From assembly GCA_963663965.2 (NCBI GenBank), contig CAXXFK010000006.1, forward strand, positions 128,001 through 192,000: a stretch of DNA of 64,000 nucleotides, written 5' to 3'. Under the pieces are notes generated by a model. It worked only from the letters and a program-made list of their open reading frames with translations, was not told the DNA's origin and did no database searches. The stretch's first letter is position 1; the number at the start of each line of letters is the position of its first letter. Position numbers and translations under genes: made by a program. Shown in pieces: positions 31,284 to 51,447 of this stretch. This DNA is from Sedimentisphaerales bacterium (lineage in GTDB: Bacteria; Planctomycetota; Phycisphaerae; Sedimentisphaerales; SM23-30).

Positions 31284-33371
31284 TCAGGGATTATAGCTGA
31301 AGAGCCATCTGGAAGAGACATCCATCATATCGAACATGTCTACCTGATAATCTTTAATGCCGTATTGCCCGTTAATGTCGGTCGGGCTGGCTGTCAGGAA
31401 AGAATTGCCTTGGATCCAGTCGGAAAGCAGGGCTAGAAAATCCTGGATATCAACGATGCCGTCAGCCTCGCCCAGCAGGCCGGTAATATCCCCGTTGATG
31501 GAATCACTGGTATATAGTGCTTTGCCGATACTCAAGACAAATTCCTGCAAATCTTGTAATTCGGCCTGGTTCAGTCCGGAGGTGATGCCATGTCGGTTAT
31601 TGGGATTGTGGGTGGTAAGGACTTCCATGATAGTGGCTGCTCCACCGTTTTGTAAATAAGGGGCAGTTCGCCAGGCCTCGGCCAGTGTGGGGACATCCAG
31701 CGGGCGGGTATCGTCCGGGCGGTTGGTGCCGACATCATACTTTATTTCCGAGATATAATCATCATTGGCAGAAGGATCGATGTAGAGATCGCCCTGGTGA
31801 CAGAATCCGCAGTGGGCTTTGCCGTAAAAGATGTTTCGACCGCGCTGGGCGCTCAGGGAATAATTGCCCCGCACCAGATGGGGACTTGGAACCGGGCGCT
31901 CAGAGCGCAGCCAGGCATTGACCGCAGCTTCTTTTTCCACCGGTATAGACATGAACTGAATGAACTTGAATCCGGCGTTGATCGCAACTTCCGCATTGGC
32001 TCGAATACCGGTGATCATTGCCGGCGCCGAATAATGAGCCAGGAGGAGGCTTTTGACATTGCGCGGGCTGCCCATGCCGTCATTCATCAGGTCCCAGTTG
32101 AGACCATCCATTCGACCATCGGGATGGCAACTGGCGCAACTGAGCCATTTCTGATAGCAGGTGTTGCCGTCATTGAAATATTGTTCACCCAGTCGGGCCA
32201 GGCTTGGTTGCTGAGGCTGGCCAAGCAGGAGTTTTTCCGATCTGGGATAGGCTTCAGTCAAATCAAAAGTATCCAGCGATTCAGAAAAATAATTGCCGAC
32301 CCAGACACTGTTACCGGCCAGGGCCAGGCTGCGGGGGCCGTTGCCCGTAAGCTGTACTCTTTTACGCAGACCGGCAAGAAAACCAAGGTCGCCGGGAACA
32401 TCATCGGCAGAGCTGGAAAAACCGCACGGAACCGCAGCGCCCGCGGCAACGCTGTCCAGCCGCTGATGCAAAGCGGGCCGGTCGATAACGCTGACTTCCA
32501 TTGAGCCGCTATGGGTGACACAGAGATAGTTGCCTTCACTGCTGCAGGCAATGGCCCATGGATTGGCCGCGCCGGCATAAACATCATCAAGCAGAACCGT
32601 ATTGACTTTTGTGCCATTGGCTATCTTGATAATACTGACAGCGTTATTCCACATCCAGCCACGTTCCAGTTGATTCGTAGGCATCTTGTAACGGCCGATC
32701 AAATGAGTGATATAAGCATATATTCCATCTGGAGACACGCAAACGCCTCGACCGCCCGAGGCGCCGTCATAAAGCGGGATGGTATTTATTATAGATCGGG
32801 TCGCGGTATTGATAATGGAAACCGTTATACTGGAATAATTATCGTCGGACGGTCCTTCGGGCAGATGGTGCACTACCACCAGCCGGGTTTCATCCGGAGT
32901 TAGAGCCAGCGCGATAGGCTCACGGCCAACAGCAATTCTCGCTATTTCCTGGTTAAGGGATAGGTCAATGCAGGAGATACTATTGTCAAAACGGTTGCAG
33001 ACAAAAAGATTCTGGTTATTCAGGACCGGCGACATGGGCGTGTGACCCACCGGGATAATATGGGTGATGCCCTGGCTTGGATCCAGAACGAAGACTGCGC
33101 CGGAACTAACTCCTGCGGTTATATAAACCAGCCCGCTTTCCGACTGGGCGGTGATCCCCAATGGAGACGCCGGCAAGGGAAAGACGCAGGTAATCTGGCG
33201 CGTGTCAGTGGCGTATTCCAATATCTGGCGGCCGGTTTTATCTGCAATATAAAGCGTGTTGGCATCCAAGGTCATGCCTGCAGGGGAAATATAATCATCG
33301 GCCTGAGTTGTGAGTGTCAAGATCATTATATAGATCAGGCTGAGCAATAATGTCCATTGGGTCGGTTTCAT
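31284..33371 (-). CDS. Secreted YVTN-type beta-propeller + diheme cytochrome c peroxidase-like domain (HzsB/HzsC-like architecture) + dockerin-like C-terminus
   Basis: Signal peptide; YVTN-like repeats (VGHTP, VGREP, GNGPR); two CxxCH motifs (CASCH, CGFCH); CCP-type 'VPTLAEAWRTAPYLQNG'; C-terminal D-x-x-G...VDxxD...WL repeats. Confidence 0.82.
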   Translation of the reverse strand: MKPTQWTLLLSLIYIMILTLTTQADDYISPAGMTLDANTLYIADKTGRQILEYATDTRQITCVFPLPASPLGITAQSESGLVYITAGVSSGAVFVLDPSQGITHIIPVGHTPMSPVLNNQNLFVCNRFDNSISCIDLSLNQEIARIAVGREPIALALTPDETRLVVVHHLPEGPSDDNYSSITVSIINTATRSIINTIPLYDGASGGRGVCVSPDGIYAYITHLIGRYKMPTNQLERGWMWNNAVSIIKIANGTKVNTVLLDDVYAGAANPWAIACSSEGNYLCVTHSGSMEVSVIDRPALHQRLDSVAAGAAVPCGFSSSADDVPGDLGFLAGLRKRVQLTGNGPRSLALAGNSVWVGNYFSESLDTFDLTEAYPRSEKLLLGQPQQPSLARLGEQYFNDGNTCYQKWLSCASCHPDGRMDGLNWDLMNDGMGSPRNVKSLLLAHYSAPAMITGIRANAEVAINAGFKFIQFMSIPVEKEAAVNAWLRSERPVPSPHLVRGNYSLSAQRGRNIFYGKAHCGFCHQGDLYIDPSANDDYISEIKYDVGTNRPDDTRPLDVPTLAEAWRTAPYLQNGGAATIMEVLTTHNPNNRHGITSGLNQAELQDLQEFVLSIGKALYTSDSINGDITGLLGEADGIVDIQDFLALLSDWIQGNSFLTASPTDINGQYGIKDYQVDMFDMMDVSSRWLFSYNP

Positions 33372-33425
33372 GGTATTCTCCTTGATATATCACACAATGA
33401 TAATATTTTCAGTTGTTATCCGGTT

Positions 33426-36400
33426 TTATCTATGCCATTCAGGGGCGTACATACTGGTAGCCTCTTCAAAAGTCGGTCTGCGACGAAAATGGGGATCAGA
33501 GGACCAGTAGGAACTGTGTTTGCCGTAATAAGTGGAATAGAACTGATAATTGGTATCCATCCAGCGGCACAGTCTCATCAGTTCGATATCGGTCAGGAGT
33601 TTGTAATGTTGACTGGCGATGTCGGTGGTCAGCATTTTTGGCAGCAGTTTGTTCTTGGAACTGTAACAGCCCAGCGATCTGGGGGGTAGATAGTCTCCAT
33701 TGTCATTGCCGCCGCCCACACCGGGTGTTATGGAGCTGAATTCAGGAATGGCCCGGCCGGCGATTTCCTTTGAAAGCAGCTGCTGATAGGAAATGCTGTA
33801 ATTGTTTGTCAAAGTACCACTGAGGTCCAGGCTGCCGGAAGGAGTGGCACCGCTGTGACAAGTAATACAATTTTTGTCAAAGATGGGCTGAATATCGGTT
33901 GGATAGTGAATAACCTGTTCCGGCCGGCCGTCACCGCCGTTTTCCGCCAGGTCACAGGGTTGGGGCTGGGATTGACTGGGAGAGCGCAGTACTGCCAGGG
34001 GCGCTTCTGTGGGTATGGTTGAAGCGGCTCGTCCCGTTTGTTCATGGCAACCGGTACAAGAACGGATTTCGCCGGGTTTGTAATTTACATAAGTGCGTTC
34101 CCGCTGAATTTCGCGGAAATCTTCATCCAGCGCCTGGAAGAAAATATTCCGGTCGGCAGGGACCATGAAATTGGCTGAACCGTCTGGTTCAACCGGTACC
34201 ACTCCCCATTGCACCCTGGTCCAGAGCGCGGAATACCAGCTATTGCTGGTAAAGTCGTTGGACCAGCGTCGTCCGGTATCCCAGTAACGCGGTATGGCTT
34301 CATTAATTCGCAACCATTTTATCTCGCCGGGCTCCACACCATCCATGCCTTCGTAGACATTGACCATGATACACTGTGCCTGATTCTGTGCCGCGTAAGT
34401 CGGATGTCGGAAGCCATATATAACTGGCGGTTCTGGACGGGGTACCACCGGAGTGGGCTGCCAGCATGAAGTTGTTCCATCGGGATCACGGTAAACATAT
34501 CGGTGTTTGCCGTCCAAGTCGATCAGGAAAATGGAATATGCGCCGGGGATATCGCGATAATGGTTGTTCCAGTTTTGTTTATAGGTGACCAGGATCTGGG
34601 TGGGATTGATTGGATAGGGATAGGAATAGAGAGGGCCGCCTACACCGTCCAAGTGCAGGGTGGAAAAATTATCAAACGAAAAATACCATCCTTCCTGCGC
34701 AGATCCCATCCGGACATCGGGCGTGATGTTGGTCAGACCTGCGGATGACCGATTGTCTTTGTTCAGATCGAATATCTGAATGGGACCCAGCACGTTGCCT
34801 TGGGGATAGTGCTGGGCGCTGACGAAAACAATCCGGCCGTCATTGCCGGGCATTTCCTGCGGGAACATATGTGAGCCGGTATTGTAATAGGAATTGGAAA
34901 TGCCAAAGAGTTCCTGGCTCTTGCTGCCGTCCGGATTCATGGTCCAGATGGTTTTGGGAGTACGATGGCCCTTGTCAATGTATTCCCAGCGGTGGTACAT
35001 CACCCGGCCGTCGGCAAGGACTGTCGGACAGAATTCGCTGACCAGGCTTCTGGACAGCTGTTCCAGTCCGGATCCATCGGGATTCATGCGGTGCAGCACC
35101 GGGGCCACCAGATGGGCCGATCCGCCGCAGAGTATGGTATGTTCGCAACGGCTGGAGGAGAAAATGATGCTGCCGTCGGGCAGATAAGCTGGTTCAACAT
35201 CGTCGGTATGAAAGTTCGAGGCATGGTTCCAGCGGTAGATTTTTTCCGCTTCGTCGACCGGGGGTTGAAGCACCTGCCGCAGGCCGCTGCCGTCCAGATT
35301 GCATTCCCAGATACGAAAGCCGGCGCCGGTATTATCCCGGTAGTCAAAGACGGCTTTTGTCGCGTCAAACGACAGCGTGAATTTATTGATGATTCCTTTG
35401 CCGCTGCCGGGAATATCTGCCGCGGTAATGACCGGCCGTTCCTGTCCGGTGCGGACATTATACAGGTAGAGACCGTTTTCACTGGAAAACACCGATGAAG
35501 GAGTGCCGTTATTGATGTAGGTATAGTAATGGTCAGAACGCAACGGCACATGTTTGTTGAAAATGATTTCGTCGAAGCCCAGTTCATCCGCTGTAACCGG
35601 ATTGGGTTCGGTTTCAAAACTCCACTGTCTGCCGCGGATTTCCTGGCCGTTCATGGTGACATCGACACGCCAGAAATAGCGGGTGTTTTTGGCCAGCGGG
35701 GACGGCGTGGGCAGGCATTCAGCGGTTTCGATGGTTCCCCCAAACCATTTAAAGTTGAGGTATGCCTCGGTTTCCCGCCGTTCCTGATCGGTCAGCGCCC
35801 GGTCATAAATGATAATCTCGGCGATCTGCTGGCCGCCGGAGCGGTAACGGTTACGGTCGCTGCATAGATTACTGGCTTCCACATTACCGGTGGTCACCAG
35901 ACTGATGACCGAATAATTTTCGGGAAGCGGCGTGCCTGAGCCGTTAACAGGGCTGCCGTTGAGCCAGGTTGAACCGTTTTTGATATTGACATGTGTGTAA
36001 GTGGCGTGCCAGATATTGGAAGTTGCCTCGGTTTCCGGTGTGGCCCGGTGAAAATGATAGGTATTGTCATCGCCCAGCAGGAAATTGCCGCCTTTCAATA
36101 CCCAGAACACCGTTCGAATGGCGCTGATGTTCAGATTGGCGCCGTCGGCGTTCATAAACTGCATGGACATGCCGGTATAGTCGCTGAGAGCCGGCCCGAA
36201 ATTGACGATAGACTTGCCATTGATGGTGGCGCCTGGATTGTAGGCCGGTTGTTTGGCGGCATCGGTCTGAACGGCATAGTTGCCGTCACCGGTGACATTA
36301 TCCCAGCGGCTGACTTTCTGGTTGGCGTCTATGGTCAGGGTATCCATATTAGAGGCATCCAGCCAGAATACCGGATTGGCTGCCGGAGAGGCGGTCCCGT

Positions 36401-37169
36401 CGCCGGTGTCCGATACCGCAAATTCGTGGATCAGCTCGAGGTTGTTCGATTCGGTTCCGAAATAAACTTTCTGATGGGTGGTCAGGCTGTGATAATCCCA
36501 TTTCAAGCTGGTTGCGGACGATACCATCGCTGCATTGTCGACCGGTTGAGGATCGAAGGCCGGGACCAGTTCATATTCGTCATAGGTAAGATACTGGCCG
36601 TGAATGACGGCCGGAGTGGTCGAGGTGTCGCCGGGAATATCCCAGGCGACAGCCATGTTGTCGCCTCCGGTGTTTTCCTTGTGCAGAACCTGCAGATAAT
36701 ATTTCTGGCCGGCAACCAAATCAATCGTTGCCGATTTTTGCGAGCTGTATTTATCCCATACATATTGACCTGTCCACCCATAAACAGAAGCGATCTTGAC
36801 CATATTGACTTGTGACTGGTCTGTGCTGAGCCACAGTTCGCCATAATCATCACAGGCCAGCCAAAAGGTATATTGGCCTGTCACAGGAGCAATCAGATAG
36901 CCATACACTATTTCGCCATAGGTTTCGGCCCAGTTCATGGTAACGGTAGAATCGCTCCAGGATACCGCTTCCAGTCGGCTGAGCGTGTCGCGCCCATCTG
37001 GATTCATTGGGAAGTTCGCATTGGAAGTCAGGCTGGTTATATTGACACCGGATATGCCGGTCCACCATGCCCGGCGAATACCGGCGGGATCAGCCTGCAG
37101 GGTGTCATTGATTAGAAAAACTGCCATGCCCAGCGTAAGTAAAACCAGTCTTCTCCTGAGAGTGTTCAT
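33426..37169 (-). CDS. Secreted hydrazine-synthase-alpha-like diheme protein with PA14 and LamG-like modules (paralogue 1)
   Basis: PA14 'GQYTFWLACDD...KENTGGD'; propeller 'DDVEPAYLPDGSIIFSSSR', 'GRVMYHRWEYIDK'; middle domain 'VPVEPDGSANFMVPADRNIFFQALD...PGEIRSCTGCHE'; 'IQPIFDKNCITCH'. Start placed at ATG 37169 after AGGAG. Confidence 0.82.
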   Translation of the reverse strand: MNTLRRRLVLLTLGMAVFLINDTLQADPAGIRRAWWTGISGVNITSLTSNANFPMNPDGRDTLSRLEAVSWSDSTVTMNWAETYGEIVYGYLIAPVTGQYTFWLACDDYGELWLSTDQSQVNMVKIASVYGWTGQYVWDKYSSQKSATIDLVAGQKYYLQVLHKENTGGDNMAVAWDIPGDTSTTPAVIHGQYLTYDEYELVPAFDPQPVDNAAMVSSATSLKWDYHSLTTHQKVYFGTESNNLELIHEFAVSDTGDGTASPAANPVFWLDASNMDTLTIDANQKVSRWDNVTGDGNYAVQTDAAKQPAYNPGATINGKSIVNFGPALSDYTGMSMQFMNADGANLNISAIRTVFWVLKGGNFLLGDDNTYHFHRATPETEATSNIWHATYTHVNIKNGSTWLNGSPVNGSGTPLPENYSVISLVTTGNVEASNLCSDRNRYRSGGQQIAEIIIYDRALTDQERRETEAYLNFKWFGGTIETAECLPTPSPLAKNTRYFWRVDVTMNGQEIRGRQWSFETEPNPVTADELGFDEIIFNKHVPLRSDHYYTYINNGTPSSVFSSENGLYLYNVRTGQERPVITAADIPGSGKGIINKFTLSFDATKAVFDYRDNTGAGFRIWECNLDGSGLRQVLQPPVDEAEKIYRWNHASNFHTDDVEPAYLPDGSIIFSSSRCEHTILCGGSAHLVAPVLHRMNPDGSGLEQLSRSLVSEFCPTVLADGRVMYHRWEYIDKGHRTPKTIWTMNPDGSKSQELFGISNSYYNTGSHMFPQEMPGNDGRIVFVSAQHYPQGNVLGPIQIFDLNKDNRSSAGLTNITPDVRMGSAQEGWYFSFDNFSTLHLDGVGGPLYSYPYPINPTQILVTYKQNWNNHYRDIPGAYSIFLIDLDGKHRYVYRDPDGTTSCWQPTPVVPRPEPPVIYGFRHPTYAAQNQAQCIMVNVYEGMDGVEPGEIKWLRINEAIPRYWDTGRRWSNDFTSNSWYSALWTRVQWGVVPVEPDGSANFMVPADRNIFFQALDEDFREIQRERTYVNYKPGEIRSCTGCHEQTGRAASTIPTEAPLAVLRSPSQSQPQPCDLAENGGDGRPEQVIHYPTDIQPIFDKNCITCHSGATPSGSLDLSGTLTNNYSISYQQLLSKEIAGRAIPEFSSITPGVGGGNDNGDYLPPRSLGCYSSKNKLLPKMLTTDIASQHYKLLTDIELMRLCRWMDTNYQFYSTYYGKHSSYWSSDPHFRRRPTFEEATSMYAPEWHR

Positions 37170-37219
37170 CGCATTCTCCTGCAAACTTATAGAGAGGTAA
37201 AATTGGAGTTCTTTATCGA

Positions 37220-40200
37220 TTACTTATGCCATTCCGGAGCAAACATACTGATCGCTTCTCCAAAAGTCGGCCGCCGTCTGAAATTGGGGTCTGAAGCCCA
37301 GGAATAATGATGTTTGGAGTAATAAGTGCCGTAGAACTGGTAGTTGGTATCCATCCACCGGCATAATCTCATCAATTCCATATCGGTCAGAAGATTGTGA
37401 TGCGGGTTGTCCGGATCATCGGTCAGCATTATGGGCAGCAGCTTATTCTGAGGGCCGTAGCAGCCCAGGCTCTTCGGCGGCAGATAAGCTCCGTTTTCGT
37501 TGCCCCGGTCTCCGCCTTGAATCTGGATGAATTCAGCTATGACTTTGCCGGCGAGCGATTTGGAGGTTAGTTGTTGATAGGAATTATTATAGTATAAAGT
37601 CAGTGTGTCAGAAAGATCTAGGCTGCCGGAAGGGGAGTCGCCGCCGTGACAGGAAACGCATTTGTTATTGAAAATCGGCTGAATGTCGGTTGGGTAATGG
37701 ATCACCTGTTCCGGTCGGCCGTCACCGCCGTTTTCTGTCAGGTCGCATGGCTGGGGTTGGAGCTTGCTTGGAGCCCGGGTCATCGCTATCGGAGTTTCTG
37801 TTCCGATGGAAGAAGGTGTTCGTCCCGATCGTTCATGGCAGCCGACACAGGAGCGGATTTCGCCCGCCCGGTAGTTGACAAAGGTTCTTTCGCGTTGGAT
37901 TTCGCGGAAATCTTTATCGAGCGCCTGGAAGAAAATGTTCCGATTGGCCGGAACCATGAAATTGGCCGAACCGTCGGTTTCGACGGGTACAACGCCCCAT
38001 TGCACGCGCGGCCACAGAGCCGATACCCATCCTGAACTGGATACGGACGGAGACCAGCGGCGTCCCGTATCCCAGTAACGCGGAATGGCTTCATTGATTC
38101 GCAGCCATTTCACTTCGCCGGATTGAATGTTATCCAGGCCTTCATAGACATTGATCACGATACATTGGGCCTGATTCTGGGCCTGGTATACCGGATGGCG
38201 GAAACTGAAGATGGCCGGCGGAGTCTTACGGGGACGCAGCGGGGTTGGATGCCAGCAGGACACCGTGCCGTCGGGATCCTGATAGACATAGCGGTGGTTG
38301 CCCTGCAGGTCGATCAGGTAGATCGCGTAGGCGCCCGGCACATTGCGATAGTGGGCGTTCCAGTCATGTTTGTAGGAAACCAGGATTTGTTCTGGATTAA
38401 CCGGATAGGGATGGTTGTAAAGCGGGCCGCCAACGCCGTCCTGATGCTGAGCGGAAAAATTGTCATAAGAGAAGAACCAGCCCGCTTCAGTGTTCTTCAT
38501 GGAGACATTCGGTGTAATATTGGTCAGCGGCGCCGAGGTGCGGGTATCTTTGTTTAAATCGGCGATCTGGATAGGGCCGACACAGTTGCCCTGCGGGAAG
38601 TGGGGGCCTGTGACAAAAACAATCCGGTTGTCGTTGCCGGGCATTTGCTGGGCGAACATGTGGGCGCCGGTATTCAGGTTCGAATCGGAGAGCCCAAAGA
38701 GCTCCTGGCTTTTGGAGCCGTCCGGATTCATTGACCAGATGGTCTTGCCAACCCGGGCGCCTTTGTCGATATATTCCCAGCGGTGGTACATCACGCGGCC
38801 GTCGTCCATAACTACCGGCGAAAATTCGCAGACCAGGCTCTTGGAAAGCTGTTCCAGATTCTGGCCCTGGGGGTCCATTCGGTAGAGGGCCGGAGAGGAA
38901 AGATGGGCCGAGCCGCCGCATAGAACCGTGTGTTCGCACCGGTTCGAAGAGAAAATGATATCGCCGTCAGGCAGATACGCCGGATCGATGTCATCGATAT
39001 GATAATTGGAGGAGCGATTCCAGCGGTAGATTTTTTCCGCTTCATCTTCAGGTTGCGCCAGGATCTGCCGCAGACCGGTTCCGTCCACATTGCACTCCCA
39101 GATCTTGAAGCCGTCTCCGGCGTGGTCACGGTAATCGAAGATGACTTTTGTGGCGTCGAAAGACAGAGTGAATTTCCCGGGAACACCTTTACCGCTGCCG
39201 GGAATCTGGGCGGCGGTTATGACGGGCCGTTCCTGTCGGGTCCTCAGATTGAAAATGTAGATTCCGTTTTCGGGCTGGAACAGCGAGCTGTTAGTACCGT
39301 TATCAATCACAGTATAGTAATGGTCCGAGGAATAAGGACGCCGTTTGATGAAAATGATTTCATCAAATCCCAGCTCTTCCGCGCTGACAGGCGCCAGTTC
39401 GGTCTGGAAAGACCATTCTTTTCCGATAGCGGTCTGATCGCCTCGCGATAGATCCACACGCCAGTAATAGCGGGTATCAAAGGCCAGTGGTGTCGGGTTG
39501 GGCATTATCTCCGCGGTTTGATAGGCGCCGCCAAACCATTTAAAGCTTAGGTAGGATTCGGTATCCAGCCGTTCCTGTTCGGTCAGGACCCGGTCATAGA
39601 TAATCACTTCGGCCACCTGCTGGCCGCCGGAACGGTATTGGTTACGGTCATTACATAGATTGCTGGCCTCTACATTGCCAGTCGTCACCACGCTGATAAC
39701 CGAATAAGTGTCCGGCAGCGCCGTTGACACGCCGTTGACGACTTGGCCGTTGAGGCATGTAACACCGTTTCTGATAGAGGCGTTTGCATAAGCGCCGCTC
39801 CAGATCGGCGCCGTCGAGCTTACATAAGGATCGCCCCGGTGAAAATGATAGCTGTTGTCATCTCCCAGCAGGAAATTACCCCCCTTAAGCACCCAGAATA
39901 CGGTTCGGATAGTATTGATATTCAGGTTGGTCCCGGCGGCGTTTTTAAACTGTAACCACGGACCGGTATTGTTGGCCAGAGCCGGGCCAAAATCGACAAT
40001 GGCATTGCCGTTAAGACTATCGGCTGCATAAAGGGGCTGCTTGTCGGATATGGTTTGTTCGGCATAGTTGCCGCTGTCTGTGGCGTCATACCAGCGGCTG
40101 ACCTTCTGTTCAGCGTCTTTCACAATCGTGTCTGACTTTGCCGCGTCCAGCCAGAACACTGCATGGGCAGCAGGAGTTCCGCCGCCAGTTCCGCCGCCGT

Positions 40201-41014
40201 TTAAAGGTCTTTCATCAATCAAAGTCAGATTGTCCGATTCCGTCCCAAAATAGACACGCTGATAGCTGGATGAACTGTGCCATGTCCATTTCAGACTGGT
40301 GTTAATTGAAGTCATGACGGCTTGGTTTTCCGGTTCAGGATTAAGCGCCGGGATTGGAGCCGAGCTGGCGCCCAGTTGATGAATGACCAGTCCGGTAACC
40401 TGGGGAGCCTTGCCGTTTGGATCCGATGAAATTGTGCAGGTTATCCCGGTAGCACCGCTAATCGTCGCGGTCAGCAGGGCAAAGGTCATATTTCCTCCGC
40501 CGAAATTATAGTCGATTCCGACCTGAGCGCCGGTGTTGTCAGCCAGTGTAATCAGACCCTCGTCAAATAATATATTCGAGCGCGGTTCATAGTTCATGAA
40601 TTGTAATCGGTAACTCTGGCTGCCGTCGAGGCCCGTAATGGTGACTTTAAGATTCTGGTCGCTGTTAGAAACATAGGCTTCTGTCGGCCAGACCGCCGGG
40701 CCCGAAGTGTTCAAATTATAATATCGAAAGCTGGCACCGCTGCCGGATTCCAGTTTAATGGCCAGGTTATCACCCTGAAAGACCGAACCACTGGTTAGCG
40801 GTTTCCAAGCTGTGAACGGTATGCCATCAAGGGTCGAATTAGCGCTGCCGCCCATATCAACCGCCTCCAGAAGCAGGCCGGTGTTGTCAAGTACCGGTTG
40901 TGAGTTGGATCCGTTGATCAGCGGAGGGGCATCAATTACGCCATGAACAGAAGTTAATAACACAGTCAGGATAAAACAAATGGCGATAATAGTACGATTT
41001 ATGATATTAGTCAT
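37220..41014 (-). CDS. Secreted hydrazine-synthase-alpha-like diheme protein with a novel N-terminal module and LamG-like module (paralogue 2)
   Basis: Collinear with paralogue 1 over the C-terminal ~1000 aa; CVGCH and CVSCH motifs; different N-terminal domain. Confidence 0.82.
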   Translation of the reverse strand: MTNIINRTIIAICFILTVLLTSVHGVIDAPPLINGSNSQPVLDNTGLLLEAVDMGGSANSTLDGIPFTAWKPLTSGSVFQGDNLAIKLESGSGASFRYYNLNTSGPAVWPTEAYVSNSDQNLKVTITGLDGSQSYRLQFMNYEPRSNILFDEGLITLADNTGAQVGIDYNFGGGNMTFALLTATISGATGITCTISSDPNGKAPQVTGLVIHQLGASSAPIPALNPEPENQAVMTSINTSLKWTWHSSSSYQRVYFGTESDNLTLIDERPLNGGGTGGGTPAAHAVFWLDAAKSDTIVKDAEQKVSRWYDATDSGNYAEQTISDKQPLYAADSLNGNAIVDFGPALANNTGPWLQFKNAAGTNLNINTIRTVFWVLKGGNFLLGDDNSYHFHRGDPYVSSTAPIWSGAYANASIRNGVTCLNGQVVNGVSTALPDTYSVISVVTTGNVEASNLCNDRNQYRSGGQQVAEVIIYDRVLTEQERLDTESYLSFKWFGGAYQTAEIMPNPTPLAFDTRYYWRVDLSRGDQTAIGKEWSFQTELAPVSAEELGFDEIIFIKRRPYSSDHYYTVIDNGTNSSLFQPENGIYIFNLRTRQERPVITAAQIPGSGKGVPGKFTLSFDATKVIFDYRDHAGDGFKIWECNVDGTGLRQILAQPEDEAEKIYRWNRSSNYHIDDIDPAYLPDGDIIFSSNRCEHTVLCGGSAHLSSPALYRMDPQGQNLEQLSKSLVCEFSPVVMDDGRVMYHRWEYIDKGARVGKTIWSMNPDGSKSQELFGLSDSNLNTGAHMFAQQMPGNDNRIVFVTGPHFPQGNCVGPIQIADLNKDTRTSAPLTNITPNVSMKNTEAGWFFSYDNFSAQHQDGVGGPLYNHPYPVNPEQILVSYKHDWNAHYRNVPGAYAIYLIDLQGNHRYVYQDPDGTVSCWHPTPLRPRKTPPAIFSFRHPVYQAQNQAQCIVINVYEGLDNIQSGEVKWLRINEAIPRYWDTGRRWSPSVSSSGWVSALWPRVQWGVVPVETDGSANFMVPANRNIFFQALDKDFREIQRERTFVNYRAGEIRSCVGCHERSGRTPSSIGTETPIAMTRAPSKLQPQPCDLTENGGDGRPEQVIHYPTDIQPIFNNKCVSCHGGDSPSGSLDLSDTLTLYYNNSYQQLTSKSLAGKVIAEFIQIQGGDRGNENGAYLPPKSLGCYGPQNKLLPIMLTDDPDNPHHNLLTDMELMRLCRWMDTNYQFYGTYYSKHHYSWASDPNFRRRPTFGEAISMFAPEWHK

Positions 41015-41116
41015 TATGGTATTATATCAAAATGGGGGGTGTTGATTCAATAGGATTAAAAAGCCAATCGAATAATCAAGGAATAAAACGAGAACGCAAG
41101 ATGGTGTAGCAAGGTA

Positions 41117-41146
41117 AAGCCGGCGGTATGCAGTTACCGCCGGCTT
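41117..41146 (-). terminator. Stem-loop (weak intrinsic terminator or mRNA stabiliser) inside the minus-strand cluster
   Basis: AAGCCGGCGGTA-N6-TACCGCCGGCTT perfect 12-bp stem, ~30 nt after the stop of the 41176 gene; only a short U-run on the minus strand. Confidence 0.6.
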
Positions 41147-41175
41147 GGTATTGAAGTAGATTTAACATGTGGTCA

Positions 41176-43308
41176 TCATGGGGTGGCCCATTTCTCCTTG
41201 AGATAATTCTGGACGATGATGCGTTCCGGATCCGTCAGCGGACGATTGAAGATCAGAATTTCCGCGATCTGCTGGCCGCCGGTACGGATATTACCGCGGT
41301 CGCAGCATAGACGGCTGGCTTCCACATTACCGGTTGTAACCAGGCTGATCTGGGAATAGTTGGTGGCAGACAGACGGGTGTTCGTACCATTTACATTCGT
41401 GCTGTTCAGATAGGTCTTGCCGCCGCGGATATTACCCGAAGCATGGGAGCTATGCCAGATATAGCCATCGGGATTAATTTCGGTGGCTCCGCGATGGAAA
41501 TGATAGGCATCGTTGTCACCCAGCAGGAAGTTGCCGCCTTTCATCACCCAGAATACACTGCGGATGTTTTTCAGATCAGTGTCAGCGCCATCCGTATTTT
41601 TGAGCTGCATCCATTTGCCCGACGCGCTGTTGGCGTAGGCCGGGCCGAAATCGACAATACTCTTATCATTCAAACCGTCCGACACATAAGTCGGATTGCC
41701 GGCCGAACCGGCGGTGGCCATATAATAGCCGTTACCGGCCTTGTCATTCCAGCGGCTGACGCCGTTGGCGCCATCGATGGTCATCGTAGACGTGTCCGAG
41801 GCATCCAGCCAAAGCAATAACTCCACCTCGTTCAGAGTACCGGGATCGAACACGATATTCTCTTCGGCGTAATTGTGTTCCAGCCATTTGGCCGCGAACA
41901 GACTCATGTCGGTAAGATCCTCGATACAATCTTCATTGAAATCGTAGGCCAGATTCACATAGGGGACATTGGGATTGTGATGGGCGGCCTCGCAGGCGTC
42001 GGCATAAACGGTGATCTGGATCATATCGGTCTGATTAGGATTGACACCATCCGACCCTACCACCTTGAGCAGGTAAACGCCGGTATGGGTAATAAATACC
42101 CTGGGATTCAAAATGGTACTGTCTTCAAAAGTGACCGGAGGATCGGGAAATTCCGGGAAGTTAGAAGGAATGACTGACCAGGCAATCATTTCATCACCCT
42201 CGACTGGGTAGGCCAGGAAAGGTTTGTCCAGCACCAGCCCCGTTTCGGTTTGGGCCAGCCAGGTGACAATACTGGGACCTGCTTCAACCCGGGCCGGACT
42301 GTTTTGTGATTCGGTCTGGAAAGACCAGATCGCGCCGGTAATGGTGTTGGGATCGGGATTCCCGATAAGTTTGAACTGGGTATCCACTTTCCAGTAATAA
42401 ACCGTATCAAAGTCCAGATCGCCGGCTGGATCGAAAGAGGTTGCGGCATTGAAATCCCGGGTGAACGCACATCCGCTCCCGGCTTCTACTTTAGCCTGGT
42501 TGGGATCCAGGTAGACGCGATACAGGACAGAGTCGGCATCGACCAGTGAACTGCCTGAATCGTCCCACGAGAGAACCTGTTCAACCTTCACCGGGGTAAA
42601 CAGTGGATCATAGACATTGCTTGACAATCCCTGTCTGTCCGCCGGCACAGGTGTGTTGGCGCCGCCGGTTACATCATGGATGACCAGGCCGTCAAGCTGC
42701 GTACTCTTGCCGCTGACGCTGGCCGGCATGATAATGGTGAAACTGGTAGCCCCGTTGACCATGGCGGTCAATAATCCAAAGGCGTCGTTCAGACCTCCGA
42801 AGTTATAATCCACATCCACCGAAGCGCCTGTGCTGTCCTGCAAAGTAACTACCGGCACACTGTATACATGCGCGCCATTGCGACCGTCGTAATTCATATA
42901 CTGAATACGGTAAGCTTTGCCGGCATCGAGACCACTGATAATGGTTGTTATGGGGCCGTCAACATTACCGACATAATTTTCTGATCTCCAGACCGGAGCG
43001 CTGCCCAGGCCGGTATAGGTGCTGAAATTGCCACTGTAGCCATTGGTCACCGTAACGGTCAGATTCATGCCGGTATAAACCGCGCCGCTGGCCGCCGGAC
43101 TCCAGCCGTCAAAAGGAATGCCATCCAGTACGGTATCGGCCGTATCGCCAAAATCGATCGCTTCCAATAATGTACCGTTACTTTGCAGCACGGGTTGGGT
43201 TGCTGTGCCGTTGATAATGGATGCCACCTTGATATCCGCCCGGGCCCCGAGTGACAGGGATAATAGAAGGGTTAAAAACGCAATGATTGCATTCATTCTT
43301 CTTTTCAT
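41176..43308 (-). CDS. Secreted modular non-catalytic protein (N-terminal module, Ig/PKD-like, internal dockerin-like motif, C-terminal LamG-like module), paralogue A
   Basis: Signal peptide; 'YYWKVD...IWSFQT' linker; 'DFNEDCIEDLTDMSLFAAKWL'; C-terminal 'LWLDAS...IAEILIFNRPL...YLKEKW'. Confidence 0.75.
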   Translation of the reverse strand: MKRRMNAIIAFLTLLLSLSLGARADIKVASIINGTATQPVLQSNGTLLEAIDFGDTADTVLDGIPFDGWSPAASGAVYTGMNLTVTVTNGYSGNFSTYTGLGSAPVWRSENYVGNVDGPITTIISGLDAGKAYRIQYMNYDGRNGAHVYSVPVVTLQDSTGASVDVDYNFGGLNDAFGLLTAMVNGATSFTIIMPASVSGKSTQLDGLVIHDVTGGANTPVPADRQGLSSNVYDPLFTPVKVEQVLSWDDSGSSLVDADSVLYRVYLDPNQAKVEAGSGCAFTRDFNAATSFDPAGDLDFDTVYYWKVDTQFKLIGNPDPNTITGAIWSFQTESQNSPARVEAGPSIVTWLAQTETGLVLDKPFLAYPVEGDEMIAWSVIPSNFPEFPDPPVTFEDSTILNPRVFITHTGVYLLKVVGSDGVNPNQTDMIQITVYADACEAAHHNPNVPYVNLAYDFNEDCIEDLTDMSLFAAKWLEHNYAEENIVFDPGTLNEVELLLWLDASDTSTMTIDGANGVSRWNDKAGNGYYMATAGSAGNPTYVSDGLNDKSIVDFGPAYANSASGKWMQLKNTDGADTDLKNIRSVFWVMKGGNFLLGDNDAYHFHRGATEINPDGYIWHSSHASGNIRGGKTYLNSTNVNGTNTRLSATNYSQISLVTTGNVEASRLCCDRGNIRTGGQQIAEILIFNRPLTDPERIIVQNYLKEKWATP

Positions 43309-43377
43309 AATAATATCTCCATATTAGTAAATAAGCTTGATTCGTTAATCAATTGATGTTCTCAGATTGACCGGTTC

Positions 43378-45519
43378 TCAGGGCGTGCCCCATTTGGCTT
43401 TAAGGTAAGCTTCCACTTCAAGCCGTTCCTGGTCAAACAGAGGACGATTGAAAATCAGAATTTCGGCAATCTGTTGACCACCGCTACGATAAGTACGGTC
43501 ACTGCACAGGCGGCTGGATTCGATATTGCCCACGGTTACCAGACTGATCTGCGAGTAATCTACCGGAAGTCGGGTAGTGGTGCCATCAATCAGTTCGCCA
43601 TTTAAATAGGTGCTGCCGTTGCGGATGTTGCCAGACGAATAACTACCGCTCCAGATATATCCATCCGCTGCGGTTTCGGACACCCCGCGATGAAAATGAT
43701 ACGTGTTATCATCGCCCAGCAGGAAGTTGCCGCCTTTCATCACCCAGAATACCGTACGAATGTTGGAAATATTCAGGTTGCTGTCGTCTGCGGGATTCTT
43801 GAACTGCATCCATTTCGAGCTGGCATTGGCAGTGGCCGGGCCGAAATCGACAATGCCTCTGCTGTTCAGGGCGTCAGCCACATAGAGCGGATTGCCCGCA
43901 GTGCCGCCTGCGATCAGATAATAACCGTTGCCGGACTTGTCATTCCAGCGGGTGACTTCGCCGGTATTGGGATCTATGACCAGTGAAGAGGTGTCCGCGG
44001 CATCCAGCCAGAGGCTCAGGTCTTTTTCTGCAAGGATCGGATTAAAGTATACGTTCTCTTCGAGATAATTATAAGTCAGCCATTCGGTCGCCAGCAAGGT
44101 GAAATCAGACAGGCTTTCAATGCAGTCATTGTCGAAATCAAATTCCAGCTTCTCATAAGGCATTGCCGGATTATTCCGGGCCGCTTCGCAGGCGTTGGCA
44201 TAAACACGGAACTGCATCAGATCCGATTGATCCGGATTTTCACCGTCACTACCCATTACTTTGAGGGTAAAGGTGCCTGTCTGAGTTATGAATACTTTAG
44301 GATGCAAGGCGCCGGAATCGTCGAAAGATACATAATCCGAGGCTGATTCCATAAATCCAGGGATTATACCTGAAACGCACGACCACGCGAACGATTCATC
44401 ACCCTCGACAGGATAAATGAGAGAAGATCGATCCAGCACAATGCCTGTCTGACTGGCTTCCAGCCAGGTGATCAGACTCGGTCCGGCATCAATCATGGCT
44501 GGGTTGTTCAACGGTTTGGTTTTGAATGACCATATCAATCCGGTCAATTCGTTGGGGTCGCTCTGGTCGACAAATTTCAGCTTGACATCCACCCGCCAGT
44601 AATAGGTGGCACCGTTGACCAGGTCGGAGGGGGGATCGAACATTGTATTGGCGGAGTAATCCTGGAAATAAGTACAGTTGGCTGCGCCATCCTGAACTTT
44701 CACGACATTGGGATCGAGATAGAGCCGGTAATTAACCGGGTAGCCCGGATCGATTGCCGTGCTGCTGGGACCGGTCCAGGATACATTTTGAGAGATTTCC
44801 ACTTTATCAAACAGGGGAGAGGTTGGATCGGTAGCCAATCCCTGGCCATCTACCGGAACAGGGTTGGTCGCATATCCGGTGATTTCATGAATAACCAGGC
44901 CATCAAGCTGTGTGCTCTTACCGCTGGAACCAGCCGGCATGATAATCGTAAAACTGGTGGCCCCCGTAACCGTAGCGGTCAATAATCCAAAAGCATCAGC
45001 CAGCCCACCGAAGTTGTAATCCACATCCACTGAAGCGCCCGTACTGTCCTGCAGGGTAACTAACGGCACACTGTACACATACTGGCCATTGCGACCGTCG
45101 TAGTTCATATACTGAATGCGGTAGAGTCGGCCCGCATCGAGGCCACTGATAAGGGTGGTGATCGGACCGTTAGCGTTGCTGACATAATTCTCCGATTTCC
45201 AGACCGGGGCGCTGCCCAGACCGGTATAGGAGCTGAAATTACCCCCATAGCCATTGGTCACCGTCACGGTCAGATTGGCACCGGTATACACATCACCGCT
45301 GATCGCCGGGCTCCAGCCGTCAAAAGGAATGCCGTCCAGTACGGTATCGGCCGTATCGCCAAAATCGATCGCCTCTAATAATGTACCGTTACTTTGCAGC
45401 ACGGGTTGGGTTGCTGTGCCGTTGATAACGGGGGAAACATCGATCGATCCCTGTACGCTGAGAGTTAGTGTCAGCAGTACATAAAACAACATCATCATTG
45501 CACTCATTCTTCTTTTCAT
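43378..45519 (-). CDS. Secreted modular non-catalytic protein, paralogue B
   Basis: Fully collinear with 41176-43308; same module order. Confidence 0.75.
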   Translation of the reverse strand: MKRRMSAMMMLFYVLLTLTLSVQGSIDVSPVINGTATQPVLQSNGTLLEAIDFGDTADTVLDGIPFDGWSPAISGDVYTGANLTVTVTNGYGGNFSSYTGLGSAPVWKSENYVSNANGPITTLISGLDAGRLYRIQYMNYDGRNGQYVYSVPLVTLQDSTGASVDVDYNFGGLADAFGLLTATVTGATSFTIIMPAGSSGKSTQLDGLVIHEITGYATNPVPVDGQGLATDPTSPLFDKVEISQNVSWTGPSSTAIDPGYPVNYRLYLDPNVVKVQDGAANCTYFQDYSANTMFDPPSDLVNGATYYWRVDVKLKFVDQSDPNELTGLIWSFKTKPLNNPAMIDAGPSLITWLEASQTGIVLDRSSLIYPVEGDESFAWSCVSGIIPGFMESASDYVSFDDSGALHPKVFITQTGTFTLKVMGSDGENPDQSDLMQFRVYANACEAARNNPAMPYEKLEFDFDNDCIESLSDFTLLATEWLTYNYLEENVYFNPILAEKDLSLWLDAADTSSLVIDPNTGEVTRWNDKSGNGYYLIAGGTAGNPLYVADALNSRGIVDFGPATANASSKWMQFKNPADDSNLNISNIRTVFWVMKGGNFLLGDDNTYHFHRGVSETAADGYIWSGSYSSGNIRNGSTYLNGELIDGTTTRLPVDYSQISLVTVGNIESSRLCSDRTYRSGGQQIAEILIFNRPLFDQERLEVEAYLKAKWGTP

Positions 45520-45692
45520 AAGTAGTTCTCCAATTTATAAGTCAAAACACACACTATTATCCGCTGTTTACATTACTTTCTGATACAAAATCCTCCTTAT
45601 TAAGTTTGTTCATTTTTATGACAATCGAAACATCTCGCTGTCTTTGTCAGTCGTATTTTTGTTATACTTAATATTGATTATCAGAGTGCCAT

Positions 45693-47387
45693 TTATTCCA
45701 GTTCCAGTCTGGGTTCGGCAAAAAACCCCCAGTCATTGCTGACAGACAGGTCAGAATCGGTGCTGACCAGCGTTAAAAAACGATCTTCTGGTTTTAGTTC
45801 CACCGCTATCTCAAGCAAACCCTGCTCAGGAGTAACATTTTTTATTGACTTCCGCTCCTGGCCATCCACCAGCACCCAGAAATCTTCCTGTGGTTTGAAT
45901 TGATCGTACTTCAAAGCGTCTTCGGTAATGCCGCAACTAGCTCGGAACCGCACAATTTCATATCTGGCCAGCGTTCTGCGGATCGTTTTAAGATCAAAGG
46001 TAATGCCAGCATTGGTATGGAGAGCCAGGGCCGGGTGTTCCCGGGTGCCATAATTCTGGCCGTTTGCAATCAAATTATGAGCATAAATACCGGGCATTTC
46101 ATGCCCGTTATAGATATTTTCATAAAATATCCCGCTGGTATTCGGGCAGTTCTTCCAAAAATGACCGGCGGAACTGACTTGAACAGGACCGTTTTCACCA
46201 TCCGGCGAAAAAACACCATCTACACCTAATATATTGCTGATTTCATGGTACAGATGATCTGACTGAGAATTTAATGGCCCATTTTTACGGGAAAACCTTG
46301 AACCAATCTGACCATTACAGAGGTCTGTCCATTGGTTGAGCTGACCACTGCCATAGCCATCCCCATTCCCATAAATATCTGCAAGATCGATAGATACAGG
46401 GCTACGCCAATAGCGATTCACACCCGAACTCAAATCCCGGATAAACAGGTTTTCCTGGATGGGGATTGGTTTTGTCTTCATTTCTTCCCCATTCATTTCA
46501 ACCGCGTTTCCGGATGTAATTGTTTCAAACTTGCTAGTCTTTTTATTCTGACCGGTTAGCATCATGACTTTACCTTTGAGAACATGCAATTCCAGATTGC
46601 CATTAACTCTCTCCTCCAGACCAAATTCGGTGCCAAGGTCAATGAATTTGGAGCGACTGGTTTTTACCGTGAAACCCCGCGCTTCCACAGGTACGGTTGA
46701 ATAGATTTTTCCGTAAGACAGATACATCGTATCTTCTGACTGTAAAGTCCACTGGGCTGGACCTTCAATCACTACCTGAGCGCCATTGTTAAAATGAATT
46801 TTCGCCAGTCCGGATTTCAAACCATAATGATCCTGAACCATGGCGCCGTTTTCTCGAGGCATTCGCAGGTATGTATCCCATTTTGCTCCAATCTCATCTT
46901 CCAGGCGAGCTACAACCTCACGGGTATGAACCGCCGATTCCCGCATCAACCACCGGTCCAAACCGATCAGTGCTAAACCGAAAAACAAGATAGCGGCCAT
47001 ATTGACCAAACCAAGAAAAACTTGCCTGCGGGTAGGGCGTTTACGCTGCAGTGCGAAATTTTGCTGTAACTCTTTTTCTGATAACTCGTTATTTACCTCC
47101 TGTTTAATGGCCCGTCGTATGACCGAATCGTCCAGATCTTTCTCTACTATATCCATGAAGCCCAGTTTGTCGGTTAACTCCATAGGCAATGACATCACTT
47201 CGGTAATACCACGATTTTTCTTTAACTTGAGATAAGTTGCCAGGAATTCCATGTAGTAATACCGGGCCGCCTTATTGTCGCGTAAAAGGGTTCCCATCTG
47301 CTGCCGTTCTTCTACCGTAATTGATCCATCCAGAGACCGGACTATCCATACGGCCAGGTCATTGCGGTTTACCCTCTGGTCATTCAT
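45693..47387 (-). CDS. FecR-like anti-sigma factor with C-terminal NPCBM domain
   Basis: Single transmembrane segment; FecR 'GAQVVIEGPA...GFTVKT...IDLGTEFG...HVLKGKV'; NPCBM-like 'HTNAGITFDL...RFLTLVSTD...FAEPRL'; overlaps the sigma gene. Confidence 0.85.
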   Translation of the reverse strand: MNDQRVNRNDLAVWIVRSLDGSITVEERQQMGTLLRDNKAARYYYMEFLATYLKLKKNRGITEVMSLPMELTDKLGFMDIVEKDLDDSVIRRAIKQEVNNELSEKELQQNFALQRKRPTRRQVFLGLVNMAAILFFGLALIGLDRWLMRESAVHTREVVARLEDEIGAKWDTYLRMPRENGAMVQDHYGLKSGLAKIHFNNGAQVVIEGPAQWTLQSEDTMYLSYGKIYSTVPVEARGFTVKTSRSKFIDLGTEFGLEERVNGNLELHVLKGKVMMLTGQNKKTSKFETITSGNAVEMNGEEMKTKPIPIQENLFIRDLSSGVNRYWRSPVSIDLADIYGNGDGYGSGQLNQWTDLCNGQIGSRFSRKNGPLNSQSDHLYHEISNILGVDGVFSPDGENGPVQVSSAGHFWKNCPNTSGIFYENIYNGHEMPGIYAHNLIANGQNYGTREHPALALHTNAGITFDLKTIRRTLARYEIVRFRASCGITEDALKYDQFKPQEDFWVLVDGQERKSIKNVTPEQGLLEIAVELKPEDRFLTLVSTDSDLSVSNDWGFFAEPRLELE

Positions 47388-47943
47388 ACAAATCCCCTTT
47401 TTGCAGTTGTCGCCTCAAGCATTCCAGCAAGTTGTCATGGATGCGGGCGATTGTGCGATAAACCGTTTTCAGATTTCTACCCGTTCGGGATGAGATGTTT
47501 TTAATCGAATGATCTTCGAAATACCGCAAATAAATCAATTGTTGATCATTTTTACAAAGCTTGTCCAGGCATGCTTTTAAAATATCCAGGCTAGAATCGC
47601 TTTGTTTTATCATGTACAAAGAATCGGCTTCAAGGGCCTGTAGTACCTCGTCGTCAAAGAACATCATTGATTTCTGGCGCTTACGGGCGTCCAGCACTTC
47701 ATAACGGGCGATCGCCATGCCCCAGGCGACAAAATCTGTGCCCATTTCGAATTGCTTGAACTTTCTCCACATGACCATTGTGGTTTCCTGCATCAAATCT
47801 TCTGCATCAGTTTCGTTGGGTACCAGGCTGAGAATATATGCCAGTATCCGATAATGACACGTTGCATATAAATGAAGAAAAGCTTCGACTGTAGCATCTT
47901 GCCCATCATATTTACCCTCAGATTTTATCGATACATCTGACAT
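47380..47943 (-). CDS. ECF sigma-70 factor (planctomycete/verrucomicrobial type)
   Basis: 'DAEDLMQET..VMWRKF..F..GTDFVAW...IAR', region 4 'LRYFED.SIK.I'. Alternative start 47985. Confidence 0.92.
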   Translation of the reverse strand: MSDVSIKSEGKYDGQDATVEAFLHLYATCHYRILAYILSLVPNETDAEDLMQETTMVMWRKFKQFEMGTDFVAWGMAIARYEVLDARKRQKSMMFFDDEVLQALEADSLYMIKQSDSSLDILKACLDKLCKNDQQLIYLRYFEDHSIKNISSRTGRNLKTVYRTIARIHDNLLECLRRQLQKGDLYE

Positions 47944-48327
47944 CTTGACCGGTTCTTGATAATTAACAAACTCAACACGAAACATGTAATTGTATTTGCA
48001 TTATACTCAATTTGCAAACACTAAAGACTTATTCCCGGCATTTTGATTATGACAAATCCTATTTCTGAACCAAAAATATAATTTGTCATCCATTTCAAAT
48101 GAAACCGAGATATTGACCTAAGAATTTAGGCGTTATCCTACCATAAAACAGTTTTGCACCTCTTCAAACGGATCCGATTGGCAAGAACAGGTTCATCAGG
48201 TGCAGGTATTAATTAAACGGGAAAAAACATGAAAAATTCTCACATAATCTCGAAAAAAAATTGAAGATACTTTTTTCAGAGAGCAATAACGAACCTAAAC
48301 AAATGCCATCCCACCGTTTGGAATGTC

Positions 48328-50942: not shown

Positions 50943-51447
50943 TGGATCTCCTGATAATACCATGGATTGTTAATATTATTTGCTGATTAGTAAAAAGTTT
51001 TTTATCAATATACTCAAGTTCGCTTTGATCTCCATATTATAATAACATCAGGGTGTTGCAGGGCAATTCAATTTTTGGGGGTGCGGCATCATCCCTATCC
51101 GCTAGTACCCGTGTATTCCGATGAATTGCAGGGGCCAAAGTTGCCAATCGATCAATGGCTCTGGGTAAACATGCCTTTTCGCGCGTCCATTGTTGGCAGT
51201 CAGGATTGACTTTACCATAAGGTGGATGCAGATTTTTGCCCCTTGTCTTGCCCGAAATCGCCGGATCTTTGGTCAATCGGTTTGATTTTACGGCTACGGT
51301 TCGACGCGAGAGCCTGCTTTGGCATCAGATTTCTTCCGATATTCTGCCTAATCATAAGAGCGTACCCTGGCTCGAACATTCCCCGAAGCTGGAATAATGG
51401 GTGATGCCACATTATTCTTTATGGAATATGGTTGTTGTGGGATATAT

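Follow-up and report, generated by a model that had tools for sequence, protein, structure and literature searches.

This work concerns a 64,000-nt stretch of the genome of a Sedimentisphaerales bacterium (GCA_963663965.2, contig CAXXFK010000006.1, positions 128,001–192,000 of the forward strand; hereafter, the window) and, within it, a minus-strand locus at 31284–47985, with all coordinates counted from window position 1. Two proteins of this locus, a1 and a2, are true homologues of the hydrazine synthase (HZS) alpha subunit, and a third is a true homologue of the enzyme's beta and gamma subunits in fused form; the locus proteins are almost certainly not a hydrazine synthase. We lean slightly toward the view that the locus is a cassette similar to a polysaccharide utilization locus (PUL), the cargo of which would be an exported c-haem oxidoreductase acting on a freed sugar or substituent, and we consider it rather probable, from the genes that surround such proteins, that the substrate is carbohydrate-derived. 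The locus is one clear example of a published family, not the first, and is less unique than an initial annotation of this DNA held. What is added here is the co-inheritance of alpha and beta-gamma, the presence of many alphas per beta-gamma, the recurrence of the cassette, the sharing of modules, and a modest enrichment of sugar genes.

Relationship of the haem proteins to hydrazine synthase

The two alpha-like proteins, a2 (37220–41014, minus strand, 1264 aa) and a1 (33426–37184, minus strand, 1252 aa, likely start ATG 37169), score 70 and 77 bits against Pfam HZS_alpha (cut-off 26.6) and carry two CxxCH motifs each, in agreement with the initial annotation. HZS alpha was the sole PDB sequence match of a2, the numbering of which is used for alpha residues below. 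We modelled the a2 core with AlphaFold2 on the basis of 120 relatives (pLDDT 84.9); the model fitted best on the alpha chain of the Kuenenia enzyme (5C2V_A; Foldseek TM 0.65; VIA Z 34.0, rmsd 3.4, 573 aligned residues), with TolB as the second-best fold (Z 25), so that the structural match predicted for the alphas was borne out. The core (541–1264) consists of a six-bladed propeller, a middle domain, and haem sites at C1056–H1060 and C1119–H1123, with H1205 as a distal ligand; the CxxCH motifs of a1 are at 1043 and 1106. With 68% amino acid and 72% nucleotide identity, and as sisters in a tree of 72 alpha cores (FastTree, midpoint root), a1 and a2 are evidently a tandem duplicate. The fused beta-gamma protein (31284–33371, minus strand, 695 aa, numbered by its own residues) matches 5C2V_B (E 4e-20) and 5C2V_C (E 1e-19), as well as, by profile, HZS beta (E 2e-42) and HZS gamma (E 6e-35), and the fusion proposed for it is thus confirmed. 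It comprises a seven-bladed propeller, a dihaem domain (CxxCH at 412 and 521, distal H594), and a weak dockerin-like tail (628–683; 26.2 against a cut-off of 29). Its comparison with HZS rests on sequence profiles because a single-sequence AlphaFold2 prediction reached a pLDDT of 35 and was not used. The two CxxCH motifs in each alpha and the two in beta-gamma, four per pair, are invariant across the aligned rows, which number 120 for all residue counts unless stated.

Residue equivalences were taken from alignments, with chain offsets that we derived (27 for alpha, 39 for gamma). By sequence, the distal ligand of haem aII, HZS His772, corresponds to H1205 and is kept in all 120 rows, and H594, which aligns to the distal His of haem gII, is kept in 118. 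The beta insertion loop of HZS aligns free of gaps and is near-invariant over the 120 relatives. Other signatures are lost. Tyr591, a ligand of haem aI, is replaced by G1064, with N, G, S, or T at this position in 110/120 rows; Cys303 of the His587/Cys303 zinc site is S776 in a2; His144 aligns by profile to I453 in beta-gamma; and the region of Cys165, the third link of haem gI, is deleted. Asp168, which we take to be a further residue of the haem gI site, lies where the alignment register is uncertain. The NCBIfam equivalogs NF052339–NF052342 were far below their cut-offs (49–54/800, 121/1250, 79/560, and 70/625). It is because of these scores and the four missing residues (Tyr591, Cys303, His144, and Cys165) that we set hydrazine synthesis aside with near certainty; the earlier statement that this is not an anammox locus therefore stands, while the Tyr/Zn ligands of haem aI, singled out for comparison in the initial annotation, are not kept.

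In place of the lost site, the alphas have a conserved set of their own. C699, R745, and Y748 show no variation among the 62 alphas that lie outside the nearest group; of these, all have E or D at position 747, 60 have W746, and 55 have D750; H805 is present in 39/62 by one alignment and in at least 90% by another. The RWEYxD motif is absent from HZS. By strand order in the a2 model, three neighbouring blades hold these residues in their B–C loops, on the face of the HZS Cys303 loop. C699, R745-W746-E747-Y748-x-D750, and H805 may form the lining of the distal pocket of haem aI. Haem aI itself is probably a normal His1060-ligated c-haem, and haems aII (H1123/H1205) and gII (H525/H594) are likely bis-His electron relays. 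The residue between the gamma haems, 453, is one of I, S, V, and M in 103/120 rows, and there is no inter-haem Trp.

As would be expected of c-type cytochromes, the locus haem proteins combine CxxCH motifs with Sec-like N-termini (judged by eye), and the source genome (G000, 94.6% complete) holds a maturation pair, consisting of a CcsA gene and, overlapping it on the upstream side, a membrane gene read as ResB-like (G000:C10:289300); the maturation system that the initial annotation looked to is therefore present. The genome also has cytochrome bd, and COX1 of the haem-copper oxidases was not found in it, with 9/14 controls detected. Elsewhere in the genome, an nrfA gene that follows nrfH is frameshifted (G000:C21:144544-146000, L008), either in the organism or in the assembly.

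Pairing of alpha and beta-gamma across genomes

The family is large: of 7985 candidates in one search, 803 qualified as alpha relatives at E 1e-30, and of 7999 in another, 2598 qualified as beta-gamma relatives at E 1e-20. The closest relatives to carry a name are metagenome-assembled genomes (MAGs) of Planctomycetota, many from Sedimentisphaerales or other Phycisphaerae. In the source genome, 15 alpha-like genes (14 places with an HZS_alpha match plus one cut by a contig end) face two beta-gamma genes, and the copy ratios in two related genomes are 19:1 (G005) and 13:5 (G013). Of 40 relatives, the 11 that have HZS_alpha are also the ones that have beta-gamma, and the other 29 have neither (CcsA is found in 36/40), although many of these relatives are incomplete MAGs and this profile overstates co-inheritance because kin are not independent. 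A beta-gamma gene was found somewhere in 30/30 tested genomes that carry a nearest orthologue of this alpha (30 of the 80 orthologue loci were submitted).

Proximity is another matter. The initial annotation treated alpha and beta-gamma as a set; while they do co-occur across genomes, their adjacency in this alpha subfamily is local, with beta-gamma nearby in 1/80 nearest-orthologue loci. The proposition that an alpha of this subfamily always pairs with an adjacent beta-gamma was rejected on this count. Viewed from beta-gamma, an alpha was shown at 30/80 loci, in 27 of these adjacent and co-oriented or fused, and at 19 of the 29 beta-gamma loci with both flanks of at least 2.5 kb. Often, two or three alphas precede one beta-gamma, and the alphas that adjoin beta-gamma are scattered over the whole tree. 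Given this excess of alphas and partners drawn from the entire tree, beta-gamma looks like a shared, common partner, and the window trio is a local grouping in a many-alpha, few-beta-gamma system. We consider it very probable that alpha and beta-gamma work together and likely that they form a stable complex. A complex prediction with a2 925–1264 and beta-gamma 26–620, from which the propeller was omitted, gave 0.02, 0.45, and 0.01 in three runs with unfolded controls and was not used.

Some individual loci are worth recording. At L152:1351-5760 (L-numbers denote the other loci compared), alpha, beta, and gamma are naturally fused in one 1470-aa protein with four CxxCH motifs. The commonest neighbour of beta-gamma, at 16 loci, is a chorismatase FkbO/RidA-like gene, a copy of which lies in the source genome (L014:7249-8373; G000:C22:59245). 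Nitric-oxide reductase genes are found near alpha in two unrelated loci (L037:6828-9233 and L241:8969-11254), and two alpha paralogues of the source genome (L003, G000:C22:16861-20270, and L013, G000:C40:35900-39700) adjoin or are broken by transposase genes.

The cassette, its sugar context, and competing explanations

All seven co-oriented ORFs described in the initial annotation were found. Upstream of the haem genes is an extracytoplasmic function (ECF) sigma factor of the Rhodopirellula/Verrucomicrobium type (47380–47985, minus strand), firmly identified by TIGR02989 (135 bits, cut-off 124.55) and matching Sigma70_r2 and r4_2; the ORF begins at 47985, and its second ATG, 47943, the start given previously, may be the true one. 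It is followed by a 564-aa membrane anti-sigma factor with FecR and C-terminal NPCBM-like domains (45693–47387, minus strand). Its own Pfam scores (FecR 22.3 and NPCBM 20.0 bits) are each slightly below cut-off, and these two calls are weak or indirect; it has a single transmembrane helix starting at residue 123 and is 34% identical to an orthologue in locus L076 that exceeds both cut-offs. Next come two secreted modular proteins, s2 (43378–45519, minus strand, 713 aa) and s1 (41176–43308, minus strand, 710 aa), which are 63% identical and share a layout of N-terminal, Fn3-like, PKD-like, dockerin-like, and LamG-like modules. Neither matched a Pfam family. For s1, there is an Atlas lead (0.83) to LamG/Fn3 clusters; the Fn3-like module of s2 is found in 92 genes of the source genome. 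The N-terminal module of s1 matched only s1 and s2 among longer proteins in a weak search, and its Atlas matches are unnamed clusters, including one 0.85 lead to a galactose-binding-like domain. Between s1 and a2 (41015–41175) is a GC-rich inverted repeat, seen by eye, that may lower transcript levels before the haem genes. A scan for promoters and terminators was uninformative, with 28 promoter sites where 23.9 were expected and 23 terminator sites where 18.4 were.

The regulatory pair is present as described but not special to this locus, as it includes one of 34 FecR-like genes in the source genome (examples are L198–L217). A sigma gene lies upstream of 31/34 and a module protein within two genes of 26/34. 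Within three genes of 20 cassettes examined, we found a LamG protein in 15, a glycoside hydrolase (GH), BNR, or esterase gene in 10, and an FAD oxidoreductase in two; four cargo enzymes also carry LamG, and some cassettes have cargo other than carbohydrate-active enzymes (CAZymes). The unit of sigma factor, FecR-NPCBM protein, and LamG-type protein of about 700 aa, of which this genome has some 30 instances, many accompanied by glycosidases, looks like an analogue of a PUL that lacks SusCD. In L076, the gene order of our locus recurs as far as GH29 (sigma, FecR, LamG protein, alpha, beta-gamma, and GH29), and a transporter and a mutarotase come next.

The accessory modules of the alphas appear to have come from this cassette. 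In a2, an N-terminal module of the s1/s2 type and a LamG-like domain (286–493) precede the core; a1 has PA14 (45–189) and a LamG-like domain (272–480). Of the modules named in the initial annotation, PA14 is clear (E 2.4e-10) and found on a1 only, while the dockerin-like tail is weak and the LamG-like domain, which has no Pfam match on the locus proteins, rests on an Atlas lead of 0.83. The alpha modules are 43–57% identical to those of s1 and s2 (43–55% for a2), and in four loci the N-terminal module of alpha resembles that of the local 700-aa protein (43% in the window, 51% in L076, 44% in L098, and 53% in L012). Judged by these likenesses, the alphas took their modules from neighbouring cassette genes as local decorations. 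Glycan-binding-type modules are thus present as claimed but are lacking in 109/118 nearest alpha orthologues, which are 733–829 aa long, and the candidate idea that such modules define the family was rejected on this basis. Among 42 long alphas, 11 carry LamG, F5/8, NPCBM, or PA14, and 16 carry an FGE-like domain.

Downstream of beta-gamma by 189 bp lies a co-oriented GH29 alpha-L-fucosidase gene with an F5/8 module (29343–31094, minus strand; Pfam E 1.4e-76). A GH29 gene also follows beta-gamma in L076 (33% identity), and ours is a probable eighth member of the unit. The initial annotation placed the locus among polysaccharide genes but left this gene out; two GH29 genes, GH106, GH127, GH43, GH27, and RhaT were confirmed by Pfam around the locus, and no SusC or SusD was found by Pfam scan in the window. 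Elsewhere in the window, there are two secreted-looking paralogues of 824 and 1173 aa (48489–50963 and 59449–62970; 43% identical, with a third at C10:214026) that have no Pfam or NCBIfam family, as well as a fusion of GH43 and ADP-ribosylglycohydrolase (3920–6664), an insertion-sequence transposase (9393–10457), and a partial sodium:solute symporter of 305 aa (58535–59452), these last three by Pfam.

To compare loci, we counted sugar-catabolic genes within two genes of alpha (catabolic GH, polysaccharide lyase, or carbohydrate esterase; sulfatase; sugar kinase; aldolase; isomerase; Gfo/Idh/MocA; ThuA/3-keto). Such a neighbour was found for 8/13 alpha paralogues of the source genome, against 4/20 random windows (Fisher p 0.027). 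The corresponding values were 15/32 for loci with paired alpha and beta-gamma (p 0.076; of 37 known loci, 33 passed the ORF filter, one of them without any neighbours) and 14/26 for orthologue loci (p 0.032; 26/30 were eligible). GH29 is within two genes of the pair in 4/32 other loci. Apparently independent support comes from cultured Bacteroidota. In Fulvitalea, alpha directly follows sigma-FecR-SusC-SusD, and Parabacteroides distasonis has an operon of beta-gamma/alpha/ccsA/DhaK/DAK2/LsrF/MFS/GH130, with UNS60_RS02750 and RS02765 as its beta-gamma and alpha genes; of the other cultured records, two have a weaker sugar context and one has none. An HZS_alpha match was also found in Bacteroides thetaiotaomicron. 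Operons of beta-gamma, an alpha-FGE protein, DhaK/DhaL, an LsrF-like protein, and two unnamed proteins recur in cultured Bacteroidota and metagenome loci (L238:17105-34541, L239:16247-28711, L100, L111, L112, L142, L175, and L182), and the DhaK/LsrF type hints at a small phosphorylated sugar that is cleaved to DHAP. In L012, L098, L106, and L177, genes for LacI, a membrane protein, an iron alcohol dehydrogenase-like protein, a DeoC aldolase, and an FGGY kinase lie near alpha; the copy of this neighbourhood in the source genome is cut by a contig end.

If the locus is indeed a PUL-like cassette, a glycan would switch it on through the anti-sigma factor. The exported alphas, in the periplasm or at the surface, would be the substrate-specific subunits; between the propeller and haem aI, they would bind a sugar or glycan substituent released by the fucosidases and rhamnosidases encoded nearby. 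Alpha would then oxidize (or, less likely, reduce) the bound sugar or substituent without O2, and electrons would pass from haem aII to the beta-gamma haems and on to an acceptor encoded outside the locus. Beta-gamma, which retains the loop that HZS beta turns toward alpha, would serve as the docking and electron-transfer partner of many alphas. A broader proposal, which we hold tentatively and at somewhat less than even confidence, is that HZS-alpha-like proteins are a large unrecognized class of O2-independent c-haem carbohydrate-active oxidoreductases of anaerobic glycan degraders, in which one or a few beta-gammas are shared by a set of alphas that differ in substrate and have an invariant Cys/Arg-Trp-Glu-Tyr-Asp/His site of their own, and of which anammox HZS is a specialized offshoot.

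Several points weigh against this cassette reading. The link to carbohydrate genes made in the initial annotation holds but is modest and post hoc: as we drew up the categories with the data already in view, the enrichment is suggestive only, and counting one gluconolactonase raises the control to 5/20 and the p-values to 0.067 to 0.15. Thresholds ranged from 1e-6 to 1e-10, the control came from the source genome only, and two control windows overlap. No sugar neighbour was found for 5/13 own paralogues, 17/32 paired loci, and 12/26 orthologue loci, and clustering of neighbours at 80 nearest-orthologue loci gave no family in more than nine. The locus contains no electron acceptor or membrane anchor, and the chorismatase/RidA-like gene is absent from it. 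The kinship within the 40-genome profile and the module-free orthologues noted above belong here as well.

Some of these points would fit an exported redox complex of haem proteins whose substrate is not a carbohydrate (an imine, an aromatic, an enol ether, or a compound of the N–O or peroxide type), with the CAZyme context reflecting a CAZyme-dense genome and a module-shuffling cassette. About half of the loci are without sugar neighbours, the top neighbour of beta-gamma is chorismatase/RidA-like, nitric-oxide reductase genes occur near alpha at L037 and L241, some cassettes have non-CAZyme cargo, and the gamma fold is related to peroxidases. We nevertheless regard this explanation as unlikely, if well short of negligible, given the sugar enrichment over random windows, the GH29 synteny with L076, operons with sugar kinase and aldolase genes in a number of lineages, and the absence of an inter-haem His or Trp. 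The pairing of few beta-gammas with many alphas could alternatively mean that beta-gamma is a MauG-like maturase that installs a cofactor or cross-link (e.g., C699 with W746 or Y748) in alphas that act alone as dehydrogenases, as might the single non-haem Cys invariant in 62/62 alphas from outside the nearest group, the conservation of W746 (60/62) and Y748 (62/62), and weak MauG-family matches. However, the second haem has His as its distal ligand (118/120) and the inter-haem position is I/S/V/M, unlike in MauG, and the HZS beta loop is kept and a natural alpha-beta-gamma fusion exists (L152), making a maturase quite improbable. We give equally little credence to the boldest form of the broader class proposal, that beta-gamma installs a protein-derived cofactor in alpha.

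The invariant polar cluster (C, R, E/D, Y, D, and H) sits on that face of the propeller which, in HZS, meets haem aI, and it bears on whether these proteins are catalytic at all. Two probable bis-His haems, surface-type modules, and the loss of HZS catalytic residues could suit non-catalytic electron conduits or glycan-tethered redox sensors, but this cluster and the deep paralogous subfamilies, which fit enzymes with different substrates, leave little room for such a role. Were the organism a cryptic anammox bacterium with a working hydrazine synthase, as raised for some Phycisphaerae MAGs in PMC10732223, the full set of alpha and beta-gamma folds would be accounted for. This we consider exceedingly improbable: apart from the equivalog scores and lost residues (Tyr591, Cys303, His144, and Cys165), none of 12 genome proteins scanned, multihaem ones included, matched an HAO/HDH model, the 15 paralogues are dispersed in a saccharolytic genome, and a copy is found in B. 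thetaiotaomicron as well. Genome searches with PF13447 and NF052339 gave no match, with positive controls silent too. A PUL-like cassette with a sugar-directed haem oxidoreductase as its cargo remains the explanation toward which we lean.

Comparison with known systems

The value of the locus lies in a frame that can be tested: alphas far outnumber beta-gammas, their conserved pocket is defined, and members of the family occur in cultured hosts (P. distasonis, Fulvitalea, Aureibacter, and, by its HZS_alpha match, B. thetaiotaomicron). Should these relatives prove to be sugar redox enzymes, the ancestral chemistry of a key anammox enzyme would be named, an O2-independent haem class would join the carbohydrate-active enzymes, and false anammox marker calls in metagenomes would be explained.

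The alpha and beta-gamma architecture outside anammox is real, but had already been described. Hägglund et al. (2025, PMC12758564) report, in the parts of the article drawn on here, non-anammox HZS homologues with co-located alpha and fused beta-gamma in clades I–IV, including two clade IV clusters in Anaerohalosphaera lusitana; these homologues have lost key HZS residues and are given no function there. Cys303 is also missing in Scalinduaceae, and the origin of hydrazine synthase is treated as an open question. The terms “carbohydrate,” “glycos,” and “sigma” are absent from its main text. Suarez et al. (2023, PMC10732223) describe, in the relevant portion, hzs-like genes in Phycisphaerae and suggest alternative substrates, and anammox genes could not be confirmed in such genomes according to a section of PMC11266412. 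The HZS mechanism is summarized in part of bioRxiv 10.64898/2026.02.25.707902. A literature search, judged from titles and the starts of abstracts with few subscription journals covered, returned no function or glycan link for non-anammox HZS relatives. Like the homologues in the consulted parts of PMC12758564, the locus has alpha upstream of a fused beta-gamma, two CxxCH motifs in each, and key HZS residues lost. As described there, the His144 position is Trp in clades I–III and His772 is missing from clade I, whereas our locus is without that Trp and keeps His772; like clade IV, it has no FG-GAP or ABC genes nearby, and its gene context makes clade IV its likely home.

Compared with anammox HzsA/B/C of Kuenenia stuttgartiensis (5C2V) and the fused HzsBC of Scalindua, the locus has the same alpha fold, propeller plus dihaem domain, and four CxxCH motifs, as well as the distal His of haems aII and gII and the beta insertion loop. 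It differs in G1064 for Tyr591, S776 for Cys303, I453 for His144, and the deletion around Cys165, and in its own invariant set (C699, RWEYxD, and H805), accessory modules, and many alphas per beta-gamma. With the dihaem CCP/MauG/BthA superfamily, beta-gamma shares a two-domain dihaem fold and CxxCH at matching places. The distal ligand of haem 2 is Met in cytochrome c peroxidase (CCP) and Tyr in MauG. Beta-gamma differs in having His there, a fused propeller, and no inter-haem Trp, and its Pfam CCP_MauG score (24.7 bits) is under the cut-off of 25.6. An inter-haem Trp is noted for MauG in a passage of PMC12758564. Finally, as in the ECF-sigma/anti-sigma PULs of Bacteroidota, a sigma factor, a FecR anti-sigma factor, and a secreted binding-type protein are followed by enzymes; unlike in those PULs, the place of SusC/SusD, which the window lacks, is taken by the LamG-type protein of about 700 aa, which shares modules with the cargo.

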